Below are positions 62,727 through 64,000 of a DNA stretch of 64,000 nucleotides, in pieces (within the stretch, counting starts at the first letter, position 1; the number at the start of each line of letters is the position of its first letter). The notes beneath the pieces are model-generated. The model was not told where the DNA came from and searched no databases. It saw nothing but the letters and a program-made list of their open reading frames with translations. The stretch comes from Thermoplasmata archaeon (GTDB lineage: Archaea; Thermoplasmatota; Thermoplasmata; UBA10834), in the NCBI GenBank assembly GCA_020696365.1, contig JAEHCM010000001.1, positions 166,987-230,986 of the forward strand. The letters run 5' to 3'. The position numbers and the translations under genes are program-made.

Positions 62727-64000
62727 TCACCCTCCTCCTGAATTGGCGAGGACTTCCGCTGCCTTGGCAGCCGCACTCGATCCCTGGGCAACGGATTCCG
62801 GGATGTCGGCCGGTCCTGCGCAATATCCCGCGAGGTATATCCCGGGCAGGTCGCTCTTGCCGAAGTCCAGGATGCTGTCGGGAGACTCGAAGAAACCGAA
62901 TTCCGTTAGCTTCAACCCGAGCTTCTTCGCCAGTTCGATAGTGTCCTTCCTGGGAACGAGCGTCGTCGCGAGCACGACTGCGTCGAACTCCTCCGTCTGC
63001 TGCTTGCCCCCCACGTCGAAGACGACCACCGGATTGTTGGTCTCCGCGTTCTCCTGTACGGTTGCATCGGAGTTGATGTAGCTGACTCCGTAATCGCTCT
63101 TAGCCCTCTCGATGTACTCGTTGAAGCCTTTCGCGCAGGCCCTCATGTCCTTGTAGAATATCGTCGAATTGGCGTCTTCATAGTGTTCCCTGGCGAGCAT
63201 AGCCTCCTTTGTGGCATGCATGCAGCACACCGAACAGCAATAGGGATGCCCCACCTGCGGGTTTCTCGATCCGACGCACTGGATGAACGCCAGTTTCTTC
63301 GGATGCTCCCCATCGGATCGCCTCACTATGTGTCCTCCAGTGGGTCCCGAGGCGTTGATCATACGCTCATACTCCATCGCCGTGTAGACGTTGGGATACT
63401 TCTTGTAGCCGTACTCTGAGGCGGATGTCGGGTCCCACACATCGAAGCCCGTGGCGACTATGACCGCCCCCGGATTCAGCGTTACGACCTGGTCCTTCAT
63501 GTTGTAGTCGATGGCATTGGGGCCACACGCAATGGCGCACGCCTCGCACTGGGAGCACGGTCCGCAGTTCACACATCGAGCCGCCTCCTTGAGCGCCTCC
63601 TCCTTCGTGAACACCCTCTCGACCTCCTCGAAAGAGGTCTTGCGCTTATCATCCGGAATGTGTTGCCTGAGGACACGCTCGCTCTTCGGGATATCTCCGT
63701 CCATTCGCGCCTTGATGTCTTCGAGCGTGATCACATGCTCATTCTTCTCCTCTGGTTCCGGCTCGATGCTCTCCCCGTTCAACGACTTCTCGATGTATCG
63801 AGCGGCCTTGTTGCCAGCCGCGAACGCCTCGACAGCCGACGCGGGTCCTGAAACGGCATCTCCGCCTGCGAAGACGCCTGGGATGTTGGTGCTTAGGTTG
63901 CCGGGGTTGACCTCCAGGGTCTTCCACTTCGTGACCGCTAGATCCTTCGAGCCAAGGGCGTCCAGGTCCGGCGCCTGGCTCACTGCTGGGATGACCGTGT
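62727..64000 (-). CDS. partial (5' end beyond window): HdrA/QmoA-like FAD-ferredoxin module preceded by an NAD(P)H-oxidoreductase-like C-terminal GD motif
   Basis: The visible part has [29 protein letters not shown] (end of a pyridine-nucleotide-disulfide oxidoreductase fold), then [19 protein letters not shown], then an HdrA-like FAD domain (AFIQCVGSR ... YCCSVCCM). The frame stays open to the window edge. Confidence 0.6.
   Translation of the reverse strand, partial: [423 protein letters not shown]

Follow-up and report, generated by a model that had tools for sequence, protein, structure and literature searches.

Flavin-based electron bifurcation is known from four families, of which the HdrA-based complexes are one. 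The HdrA of the canonical MvhADG–HdrABC complex (5ODC) is a four-domain homodimer, in which the inserted ferredoxin domain faces free ferredoxin and a pyridine-nucleotide site is absent. An HdrA variant interrupted by another flavoprotein module has been described as HdrL in 2009 (PMC2702500, PMC5947623), as HdrA9-11 of ANME-1 in 2022 (PMC9012536), and as "type III HdrA" in 2025 (PMC12054007). The type III classes A9, A9-TRX-C, and A10 (PMC12054007) correspond to the ANME-1 HdrA9-11 (PMC9012536), and in all of them a GltD/NfnB-like domain of ~480–500 aa interrupts the inserted ferredoxin domain. The A9 class is derived from an HdrA without the N-terminal domain and is found in clusters with several hdrA genes and mvhD. 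Type III HdrA was reported from ANME-1 and Bathyarchaeota only, with nine sequences (PMC12054007). Bacterial HdrL proteins, including HdrL1-3 of Desulfobacterium autotrophicum and Sfum_0824 of Syntrophobacter fumaroxidans, were described as a "heterodisulfide reductase/glutamate synthase fusion"; their genes are always followed by mvhD and are adjoined by hdrBC. A related module occurs in StnC of the Sporomusa ovata StnABC complex, where residues 102–565 are inserted in a NuoG domain, the module FAD does not bifurcate, and Lys170 stands where NfnB has its Glu cluster ligand (PMC10482914).

We analyzed a 64-kb stretch of DNA from a Thermoplasmata archaeon (hereafter the window), at the end of which a minus-strand gene is cut off. 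Positions 62727–63998 translate into 423 codons without a stop, followed by TGA at 62727–62729, and this open reading frame (62727–64000) runs off the window edge, so that the protein is longer than its visible part, as a preliminary description of this DNA had stated. The window covers only residues 479–901 of a 901-aa protein. The cut-off gene is the last 47% of a subunit of the known HdrL/type III HdrA kind, a putative enzyme in which a predicted NADPH-binding module sits within the HdrA flavoprotein. The features of the visible part were as follows.

62727..64000, minus strand: visible 3' part of the type III HdrA/HdrL gene (aa 479–901 of about 901, plus stop); open frame, 408 of 422 residues identical to aa 479–900 of the ortholog L002.
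63762..63998, minus strand: final 79 aa of the GltD/NfnB-like cassette, which belong to the C-terminal part of the cassette FAD domain and include the GD motif (63792–63878); matched by PRK12771, gltA, and GOGAT small-subunit models, colinear with StnC (8oh5_C) and Csac NfnA (9bov_A).
63648..63761, minus strand: acidic linker past the cassette core; alignments to 9bov_A, 8oh5_C, and 9n5u_A run through it, while Thermotoga maritima NfnB stops earlier.
63561..63647, minus strand: permuted N-terminal segment of the GltD/NfnB fold; Pfam Fer4_20 positions 2–38 (E 7e-4), T. maritima NfnB residues 8–43 as a separate piece (i-E 0.075), colinear with StnC to residue 566.
63519..63560, minus strand: second CxxCxxCxxxC(G)P motif of the HdrA inserted ferredoxin domain and C-side junction of the insertion; HdrA 5odc_A from residue 293 (CIECGLCAKVCGP), in 15 of 15 aligned members.
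62730..63518, minus strand: second part of the thioredoxin-reductase-like FAD domain of HdrA; HdrA2 model positions 284–561 (E 5.7e-83), 5odc_A residues 293–567.

Visible residues 2–168 matched the C-terminal end of GltD-type proteins (NCBIfam PRK12771 positions 374–534 of 566, E 3.8e-32; TIGR01316 gltA, E 6.9e-19), and visible residues 142–418 matched HdrA models (NF040770 HdrA2 positions 284–561 of 777, E 5.7e-83). These scores are far beyond chance. They support the preliminary description in its reading of a GltD/NfnB-type GD motif at the visible start, where the peptide it quoted was located at 63792–63878, and of an HdrA-type FAD domain further on. Within the HdrA part, the Cys ligands of a [4Fe-4S] cluster and the equivalent of Lys409, the FAD-N5 lysine, were found at 63201–63287 and a second GD-type motif at 62754–62843. 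The Cys-rich, ferredoxin-like stretch was also present (at about 63519–63580), but it is a hybrid of the permuted N-terminal RCxxCG piece of the GltD fold and the second CxxCxxCxxxCP motif of the ferredoxin domain inserted in HdrA. The permuted segment at 63561–63647 gives the first two Cys residues of the first cluster motif of the cassette.

The missing 478 residues, and with them the NAD(P)H Rossmann motif that lies outside the window, were read from the collinear orthologs that a GTDB genome scan recovered in MAGs of seven Thermoplasmata species. Amino acid identity over the visible part was 97% for the closest of them, and nucleotide identity was 93% over 12.3 kb. Window position 64000 corresponds to position 11244 of L002, where the gene starts at 9812, which places the 5' 1.43 kb of the gene beyond the window edge. 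This missing stretch is expected to begin MTKSVMVIGGGIAGIQ, with an MvhD-HdrCB gene upstream. The closest contig, L001, showed 97% nucleotide identity over the 5.5 kb nearest the gene and 94% over the remainder. Within the gene it shows a scaffold gap (a run of N) as well as a frame break, and it stops 62 aa short of the start; by itself it gave the nested order described below, not the whole protein, and the seven intact orthologs came from the GTDB scan. The gap and the frame break might point to an assembly chimera or a decaying, functionless pseudogene, which we consider extremely improbable given that seven independent species representatives from Thermoplasmata have an uninterrupted reading frame of 900–901 aa and the frame in the window is open. 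Moreover, clustering at 90% identity gave at least 120 protein clusters that span 95–100% of the length (the one exception was a 531-aa partial sequence), and the cofactor ligands are all invariant in the family.

Upstream of the visible part, the orthologs contain a complete GltD/NfnB-like module, in which VGAGPAGL is the FAD motif, GGGNAAMD...VIYRR the NAD(P)H motif, and Fer4_20 the Fe-S domain; Pfam assigned Fer4_20, Pyr_redox_2, and two Rossmann motifs to the ortholog. A separate NAD(P)H-binding domain exists in these proteins, and the part beyond the edge is not simply the usual N-terminal half of HdrA. Searches against the PDB (phmmer) aligned ortholog residues 2–149 with residues 143–290 of HdrA (5odc_A), residues 152–630 with Csac NfnA, StnC, and NfnB, and residues 626–897 with HdrA residues 293–567. 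A 476-aa cassette for NADPH, FAD, and two [4Fe-4S] clusters thus splits the inserted ferredoxin domain of HdrA, with one of the two CxxCxxCxxxCP motifs of this domain on either side. The window by itself, with a GD motif, Cys residues, and HdrA, was also compatible with a simple tandem fusion, in which a complete N-terminal NAD(P)H flavoprotein would be followed by an HdrA module. We judge this order to be very improbable: the visible HdrA part begins at residue 293 and by itself would miss the GxGxxG FAD-binding segment (seen in orthologs only, not in the window), and in all orthologs the cassette comes after both the N-terminal HdrA segment for FAD binding and the first of the ferredoxin motifs. 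The ortholog sequences refute a tandem fusion unless the 5' end differs in this genome only. The combination of an NAD(P)H flavoprotein with HdrA, as claimed in the preliminary description, was thereby retained, but not its placement of the flavoprotein as an N-terminal fusion.

Structure prediction confirmed both folds, that of the cassette and that of HdrA, at the level of a cofactor-free AlphaFold model (pLDDT 84.6, pTM 0.79). Foldseek matched the model to 9bov_A (rmsd 2.1 Å over 480 columns), 8oh5_C, and 5jca_L, and to HdrA chains across both halves (8rwn_A, target TM 0.93). The host protein is an N-type HdrA, with the FAD domain, Cys197, and the inserted ferredoxin domain, but with neither the N-terminal domain nor the C-terminal ferredoxin domain: the ortholog extends from residue 143 to residue 567 of HdrA, and no matches to the N-terminal domain or the C-terminal ferredoxin domain were found in L002, L005, and L008. 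The insertion junctions were kept in all 15 aligned sequences and were identical in Thermoplasmata, Myxococcales, Planctomycetes, Syntrophobacteraceae, and Spirochaetes, including a Syntrophobacteraceae MAG homolog with 42% identity over the full length.

Downstream of the cut-off gene, the operon continues on the same strand with the following genes; the last five genes form a block at 53034..56979, with Pfam labels drawn from the homologous L001 genes.

60846..62720, minus strand: C-type HdrA, 624 aa, with an N-terminal 4-Cys domain, an FAD domain that has neither an inserted ferredoxin nor Cys197, and a C-terminal 2x[4Fe-4S] ferredoxin domain; predicted to partner the HdrL-type protein in a heterodimer.
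60014..60880, minus strand: MvhD ([2Fe-2S] FlpD domain; PF02662, E 6e-53) with a winged-helix-like C-terminal domain.
56976..60017, minus strand: fused double HdrA, 1013 aa, an N-type half (Cys197, inserted ferredoxin) followed by a C-type half; the gene overlaps, at its start, the stop of the one before it.
56518..56979, minus strand: MvhD.
56132..56515, minus strand: 127-aa wHTH-like protein.
55116..56129, minus strand: MvhG.
53595..55109, minus strand: MvhA, [NiFe] large subunit.
53034..53522, minus strand: HycI-type maturation protease.

The 624-aa HdrA starts 6 nt past the stop of the HdrL-type gene, and the true start of the MvhD fusion is probably the ATG at 60841. The C-terminal part of this fusion and the 127-aa protein shared 29% identity (E 8e-13). 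Orthologs have the MvhD-HdrCB gene immediately upstream of the HdrL-type gene. Nearly all loci showed HdrC/B or HdrCB upstream and a C-type HdrA and MvhD downstream; the C-type HdrA is present as a neighbor, or fused, in relatives, and a Planctomycetales locus has MvhDGA directly downstream. The Cys197 motif TFPTNDCSIC is found in the HdrL-type protein (ortholog) and is missing in the 624-aa neighbor, which has the N-terminal domain. This split of Cys197 and the N-terminal domain between two proteins fits a heterodimeric HdrA core with MvhD, in line with the complementarity rule for HdrA heterodimers (PMC9012536). Methanogenesis markers and rRNA, sought to judge whether the host is a methanogen, were not found in the 64-kb window.

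The locus is similar to the canonical MvhADG–HdrABC in its HdrA FAD domain with the cluster and Lys409, the inserted ferredoxin motifs, Cys197, and the presence of MvhD, MvhG, and MvhA in the operon. Unlike in canonical HdrA, the domains are split over two polypeptides, and the ferredoxin-facing domain carries the predicted NADPH module. The preliminary description was right that such coupling is foreign to canonical methanogen Hdr, yet it had already been described in HdrL, ANME-1 HdrA9-11, and type III HdrA, whose neighborhood with mvhD and further hdr genes is present here. The gene thus belongs to a known family, and its novelty is modest. Compared to the published type III proteins, this one is from Thermoplasmata, it forms a split pair (901 aa plus the separate 624-aa C-type HdrA), and its cluster of ~21 kb contains four HdrA units and an Mvh hydrogenase. 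The aligned bacterial HdrL members differ in being complete HdrAs with the N-terminal domain and the C-terminal ferredoxin (1080–1185 aa, some of them selenoproteins); DsrC is their proposed partner, and the S. fumaroxidans complex was detected in the proteome, whereas the archaeal one is putative. That the junctions are identical in both subtypes speaks for a single insertion event and not, as has been proposed, for two.

The cassette itself is a circularly permuted GltD/NfnB fold. T. maritima NfnB aligned in two pieces (residues 45–462, then 8–43), while StnC and Csac NfnA were colinear over residues 103–567. Alignments related the cassette to both NfnB and GltD, but its highest sequence and fold similarity was to StnC (8OH5) and Bfu-type NfnA (9BOV, 9N5U), with E-values of 1e-121 to 1e-132, 43–46% identity, and an rmsd of 2.1 Å. 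Bit scores were 408–445 for StnC and Bfu-type NfnA, whose alignments cover ~70 extra linker residues, 330–343 for NfnB, and 231 for GltD structures. A role as glutamate synthase small subunit was rejected: GltD is a stand-alone protein of ~450–480 aa that works with GltB, whereas this module is embedded in HdrA and its neighbors are all Hdr/Mvh genes. The cassette shares with StnC and Bfu-type NfnA the permuted boundaries (a PCxxxCP start and an RCxxCG end), the acidic linker, which stand-alone NfnB does not have, and the proximal-cluster Lys. The modules of both are inserted within a host Fe-S domain, but the host of StnC and Bfu-type NfnA is a NuoG-like domain in Bfu/HydABC-type complexes that bifurcate at FMN, whereas HdrA, the host in this family, does so at FAD. 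NuoF/NuoE-like genes were not found in the operon.

The resemblance to NfnB raises the question of whether the cassette FAD bifurcates as in NfnAB, in series with the HdrA flavin, as was suggested for ANME-1 HdrA9-11 (PMC9012536). NfnB and NfnI-L (4YLF, 5JCA) share with the cassette the fold (~42% identity, target TM-scores of ~0.8), the FAD and NADPH motifs, the two [4Fe-4S] clusters, and the Arg of GIPxxRLP. This Arg, which H-bonds the FAD N5 in bifurcating NfnB, is conserved in the family (GIPDYRLP, of the pattern GIPxYRLP), and on sequence grounds a bifurcating cassette flavin is therefore conceivable. The Arg is also conserved in StnC, where it lies 6 Å from N5. Stand-alone NfnB (~470 aa), in contrast, has an unpermuted N-terminus, uses Glu as a ligand of the proximal cluster, and requires NfnA. 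The Glu column (Glu in 4ylf_B and 5jca_L) was occupied by Lys (IAGLKAFV) in 14 of 15 family sequences and by Arg in the other, in place of the Glu in the NfnB motif LERF; non-bifurcating StnC likewise has Lys. An NfnA partner ([2Fe-2S] plus FAD/NAD-binding, PyrK-like) was absent from the window operon, the ~21-kb syntenic cluster of L002, and seven syntenic Thermoplasmata loci; FlxA/NfnA-like NAD-binding [2Fe-2S] flavoprotein genes, located after HdrL-MvhD, were found only in two distant loci (L083, L084). We therefore regard two bifurcation sites as doubtful, and the cassette most likely serves for simple NADPH input and output, with no bifurcation of its own, like the module of StnC.

A further question was which dinucleotide the cassette uses. 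GGGNAA is invariant in the family alignment (G381, G382, G383, A386) and YRR, with the Arg-Arg pair expected after strand β2 in NADPH-specific relatives, is in its consensus; the combination GGGNAAMD...YRRT is common to the NADPH-specific StnC, Csac NfnA, and NfnB, so the substrate motif looks NADPH-type and not NADH-type, by sequence inference only. An NADH-specific type III HdrA was argued for in a previous study on the basis of type III HdrA and an mvhADG-linked Bathyarchaeota cluster, with NADH as a mid-potential donor that reduces heterodisulfide and protons to H2, or the reverse (PMC12054007). The Mvh hydrogenase co-transcribed at our locus suits this proposal. However, the GxGxxG here is the FAD motif (VGAGPAGL), and the Rossmann motif for the dinucleotide substrate is GGGNAA (GxGxxA) followed by the NADPH-type YRR, which makes NADH specificity unlikely in our estimation. 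Apart from cofactor specificity, the reaction scheme of the NADH proposal agrees with the one that we favor.

Overall, the locus is best explained, with fair though not high confidence, by a type III (HdrL-type) HdrA with a nested, permuted GltD/NfnB-like cassette, in an asymmetric HdrA core where NADPH enters or leaves and bifurcation takes place at the HdrA flavin. What the sequences show, for the N-terminal 478 aa those of the orthologs, is the domain layout with its junctions and cofactor motifs, all of which are conserved across archaea and bacteria; from these we infer the electron paths. The HdrL-type protein would pair with the adjacent 624-aa C-type HdrA, and MvhD would join to form the asymmetric core. 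The cassette FAD would exchange hydride with NADP(H), and single electrons would pass through the two cassette clusters and the two inserted-ferredoxin clusters to the HdrA flavin, the putative site of bifurcation or confurcation. NADP(H) would thus take the branch held by free ferredoxin in canonical Hdr. Of the remaining two branches, one may lead to a disulfide reductase of the HdrBC type, encoded by the MvhD-HdrCB gene that directly precedes this one in orthologs, and the other, via MvhD, either to ferredoxin or to the Mvh [NiFe] hydrogenase of the same transcript. A similar model was independently proposed from predicted structures (PMC12054007). Several points count against this explanation. 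NADP(H), at about -320 mV, on the low-potential-ferredoxin branch is thermodynamically odd if H2 donates the electrons; the Arg of bifurcating NfnB is conserved, some distant loci have an FlxA/NfnA-like gene, and NADH has been favored over NADPH (PMC12054007).

It is conceivable, though in our view unlikely, that the split pair, MvhD-HdrCB, the MvhD-winged-helix protein, the double HdrA, and the Mvh hydrogenase form one multi-flavin supercomplex linking H2, NADP(H), ferredoxin, and a disulfide that is not necessarily CoM-S-S-CoB. If so, the supercomplex would be an NADP-coupled bifurcating [NiFe] hydrogenase/disulfide reductase in a possibly non-methanogenic archaeon, and the winged-helix domains would be structural subunits.

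How HdrA complexes are coupled anew to other electron carriers is under active study. This family is abundant in public data and extends beyond ANME-1 and Bathyarchaeota, and its insertion junctions are identical across both subtypes and both domains of life. Since Stn/Bfu enzymes use the permuted, Lys-type cassette simply for NADPH input, its presence here speaks against a second site of bifurcation. Although the architecture has been in the literature since 2009, the NADPH-type motif, the Lys-type cassette, and the identical junctions sharpen the published speculation, and the locus provides a clean and well-conserved archaeal example of NADP(H) being wired, by prediction, into the ferredoxin branch of HdrA.

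The HdrA-like gene at 62727–64000 on the minus strand was translated from position 63998 to 62730 into 423 stop-free residues followed by a TGA (62727–62729), and its frame ran open through the window edge.

Features of the visible gene, read from the translation (HdrA-type domain also from profile searches)
63792–63878, minus: GD motif of the GltD/NfnB-like part
between the GD motif and 63647, minus: acidic linker
63561–63647, minus: cassette-end segment, after the acidic linker
63519–63560, minus: 14-residue stretch adjoining the HdrA part
3′ end of the gene, minus: HdrA-type flavoprotein domain of ~260 residues
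63201–63287, minus: 29-residue motif inside the HdrA-type domain
62754–62843, minus: second GD-type motif, within the HdrA-type domain

In profile searches, visible residues 2–168 matched the C-terminal end of a GltD-type model (PRK12771, positions 374–534 of 566, E 3.8e-32) and residues 142–418 matched the HdrA2 model (positions 284–561 of 777, E 5.7e-83), far exceeding chance. Pfam returned Pyr_redox_2 and, weakly, Fer4_20 over its first 38 positions. Translation and profile searches confirmed the GD motif, Cys-rich segment and HdrA-type FAD domain of the preliminary description.

The missing 5′ part was obtained from orthologs. A homology search identified a 96% identical fragment (P0001), whose contig L001 (ENA ERZ23491372 scaffold_688, the closest public contig) holds 1.6 kb of upstream sequence interrupted by a scaffold gap. 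This gap lies inside the gene (~1463–1560, with duplicated flanks), and therefore the gene caller reported only the 335-aa fragment. In the L001 upstream frame, the GltD-like part was preceded, unexpectedly, not by an N-terminus but by the closing stretch of an HdrA FAD segment together with a ferredoxin motif (…FKVDVLKKARFVDEEKCNGCGDCFKVCP…). In a scan of GTDB species genomes, the locus was intact and collinear throughout in seven Thermoplasmata MAGs. One of them, L002, shared 93% nucleotide identity with the window across 12.3 kb, with window position 64000 corresponding to L002 position 11244. The 422 visible amino acids were 97% identical to residues 479–900 of the 901-aa L002 protein, so the window lacks 478 residues. 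The proposed joining of an NAD(P)H flavoprotein to HdrA is supported, as the orthologs carry a full NfnB-like module with Rossmann and NAD(P)H motifs upstream, but its topology is corrected, as the HdrA FAD segment and ferredoxin motif precede this cassette.

The anatomy of the full protein was read from the orthologs. In phmmer searches against PDB sequences, residues 2–149 and 626–897 matched residues 143–290 and 293–567 of canonical HdrA (5odc_A), and residues 152–630 matched NfnB-like modules, including Csac NfnA (9bov_A, E 3e-132), T. maritima NfnB (4ylf_B, E 5e-100), T. sibiricus NfnA (9n5u_A), StnC (8oh5_C) and P. furiosus NfnI-L. A 476-aa module is therefore located between HdrA residues 290 and 293. 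As judged from these alignments, the insertion point is in the inserted ferredoxin domain, past the first CxxCxxCxxxCP motif and directly ahead of the second. Pfam detected Fer4_20, two Rossmann motifs and Pyr_redox_2 across the insert. The AlphaFold model of a 97% identical ortholog (P0121) was confident (pLDDT 84.6, pTM 0.79). Foldseek aligned it with 9bov_A (rmsd 2.1 Å over 480 columns, 46% identity), 8oh5_C, 9n5u_A and NfnI-L (5jca_L), and aligned HdrA chains along all 900 residues (e.g., 8rwn_A, target TM 0.93).

Stand-alone NfnB aligned with the insert in two pieces, NfnB 45–462 with insert 5–406 and NfnB 8–43 with insert 440–476, the latter being weak when taken alone (i-E 0.075). The first cluster motif of the GltD fold (RCxxC…PCxxxCP in NfnB) is therefore split in the insert, which opens with PCSDKCP and closes with RCVNCG. 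The split brings both cassette ends together at the distal cluster, beside HdrA's own clusters. StnC and Bfu-type NfnA (residues 103–567) were colinear with the insert, linker included. The Stn cryo-EM study reported the same module in StnC (residues 102–565), itself inserted into a NuoG domain, with a non-bifurcating FAD, electrons running linearly from NADPH/FAD through two clusters to the host chain, and a strictly conserved Lys170 at the proximal cluster in place of the NfnB Glu (PMC10482914). Of 15 aligned members of the HdrL-type family, 14 have Lys at the equivalent column (IAGLKAFV) and the remaining one has Arg. The cassette NAD(P)H motif GGGNAAMD…VIYRRT is of the GxGxxA plus Arg-Arg type, the same type as in NADPH-specific StnC, NfnA and NfnB. 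These sequence features identify the insert as a StnC-type cassette in permuted form.

Both junctions, …TID(R/K)xGxAPCxxxCP… on the N-side and …RCxxCGxCxxCxxCxxxC… on the C-side, were conserved across the sampled lineages (Thermoplasmata, a DHVE2 archaeon, Myxococcales, Planctomycetales, Thermodesulfobacteriota, Syntrophobacteraceae, Terriglobia, Bacteroidales and Rectinemataceae). In one subtype (1080–1185 aa) the insert sits in a complete HdrA of four domains. In the other its host is an "N-type" HdrA, and a "C-type" HdrA is either a separate protein (leaving ~900 aa, as in the window) or fused downstream (giving ~1420–1565 aa). The identical junctions in both subtypes argue for a single insertion event. 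The family's 90%-identity clusters in the protein database numbered at least 120 (coverage 95–100%, except for one 531-aa partial) and were annotated generically (e.g., "NAD(P)-binding protein", "HdrA-like polyferredoxin", "glutamate synthase small chain").

The genes downstream overlap or nearly abut, and the C-type HdrA is followed by an MvhD–winged-helix-like fusion, a 1013-aa fused double HdrA, MvhD, a 127-aa paralog, MvhG, MvhA and a HycI protease.

Partner genes in the window
60846–62720, minus: 624-aa C-type HdrA, starting 6 nt past the stop of the type III gene
60014–60880, minus: MvhD fused to a winged-helix-like domain
56132–56515, minus: stand-alone 127-aa paralog of the winged-helix-like domain, after the second MvhD

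The 624-aa HdrA carried an N-terminal 4-Cys domain and a C-terminal 2x[4Fe-4S] ferredoxin domain but had neither the inserted ferredoxin domain nor the TFPTNDCSIC motif, and the type III protein had the reverse domain set, including Cys197. In a solved HdrA complex, Cys197 completes the N-terminal cluster in the partner protomer, and the low-potential path toward the inserted ferredoxin domain passes via this cluster (PMC9012536). Such complementarity has been published as the hallmark of HdrA pairs that form heterodimers. The 624-aa protein also carried a charged, low-complexity 52-aa insert (EEKAAETGEVVEEPAAEKKAEEEGSDRRRRRRGRGRGDEDEAGEEAAPSS) in its FAD domain (61542–61697, minus), as did close orthologs in L001 and L002. 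The 127-aa protein was 29% identical to the MvhD-fused domain (E 8e-13), with weak IclR/ArsR HTH matches, and another Thermoplasmata locus (L084) had a 127-aa gene at the same position beside MvhD/MvhG. A protein with a DNA-binding-type fold is an apparent fixed companion of MvhD.

Upstream, the orthologs carried a 533-aa MvhD-HdrCB protein, a further double HdrA and a canonical set of HdrA-HdrC-HdrB-MvhD. In L002 (1–21700), the whole cluster occupied ~21 kb on a single strand with four HdrA units, of which the window spans the downstream half only.

HdrA units of L002
unit 1: canonical HdrA-HdrC-HdrB-MvhD set
unit 2: 1011-aa double HdrA with a 533-aa MvhD-HdrC-HdrB triple fusion
unit 3: type III pair
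unit 4: 1013-aa double HdrA with MvhDGA

In other lineages, HdrC/HdrB or HdrCB almost always precede the gene and C-type HdrA and MvhD come after; MvhDGA followed directly once and FlxCBA-like genes twice. In a BRC1 bacterium (L083, 13918–16629) and a Thermoplasmata MAG (L084, 13961–16897), two Fe-S proteins came after HdrL-MvhD, together with a NAD_binding_1 plus DHODB_Fe-S_bind flavoprotein (FlxCBA/NfnA-like), which implies two pyridine-nucleotide sites in those predicted complexes. HdrCB-HdrL flanks at distant loci (L083 16669–20755, L085 705–4812, L082 3539–5659) contained GcvH-like lipoyl-carrier proteins, lipoate-protein ligases, a radical-SAM gene, DUF116 and two unknown ~225-aa genes. 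This setting recalls the sHdr lipoate-binding proteins of sulfur oxidisers, and the substrate may perhaps be a dithiol bound to a protein.

Elsewhere in the window, other redox genes encoded a thioredoxin-reductase-like flavoprotein (4731–5708, plus), a 2-oxoacid:ferredoxin oxidoreductase alpha/beta pair (30255–32362, plus) and a peroxiredoxin (45383–46093, plus). A 98-nt tRNA match (7959–8056, minus), whose anticodon ARAGORN could not name, probably contains an intron. A 106-nt tRNA match found by Rfam only (48229–48334, plus) lies inside the mechanical ORF 48139–48756, the true response-regulator start of which probably lies farther downstream. The 64-kb window showed no methanogenesis marker genes.

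We propose that the cassette would bind NADP(H) and exchange hydride with its own FAD. Single electrons would pass through its two clusters to the two inserted-ferredoxin clusters, then to the HdrA flavin via the C-type partner's N-terminal cluster, completed by Cys197, with further branches to an HdrBC-type disulfide reductase and, via MvhD, to Mvh hydrogenase or ferredoxin. Alternatively, a second bifurcating flavin could sit in the cassette (PMC9012536), where the N5-proximal Arg is conserved. Because the cassette is Lys-type and permuted and an NfnA partner is absent, we favour a reading in which the cassette is a putative plain module for NADPH input/output and bifurcation takes place at the HdrA flavin.

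The architecture is already known, and the finding is a further member of a described, abundant family. Strittmatter et al. (2009) described HdrL as a "heterodisulfide reductase/glutamate synthase fusion" with mvhD always following it, and HdrABC/HdrL were abundant in sulfate-grown S. fumaroxidans. In ANME-1 the architecture was described as HdrA9–11 (Chadwick et al. 2022; PMC9012536). A 2025 survey named the architecture type III HdrA (classes A9, A9-TRX-C and A10), predicted that the GltD domain blocks ferredoxin access and proposed NADH as mid-potential donor (PMC12054007), whereas the cassette motif here is, from its residues, NADPH-type. Besides this point, our study adds a split member from Thermoplasmata, the assignment of the cassette to the StnC type together with its permutation, and the identity of the junctions in both subtypes.
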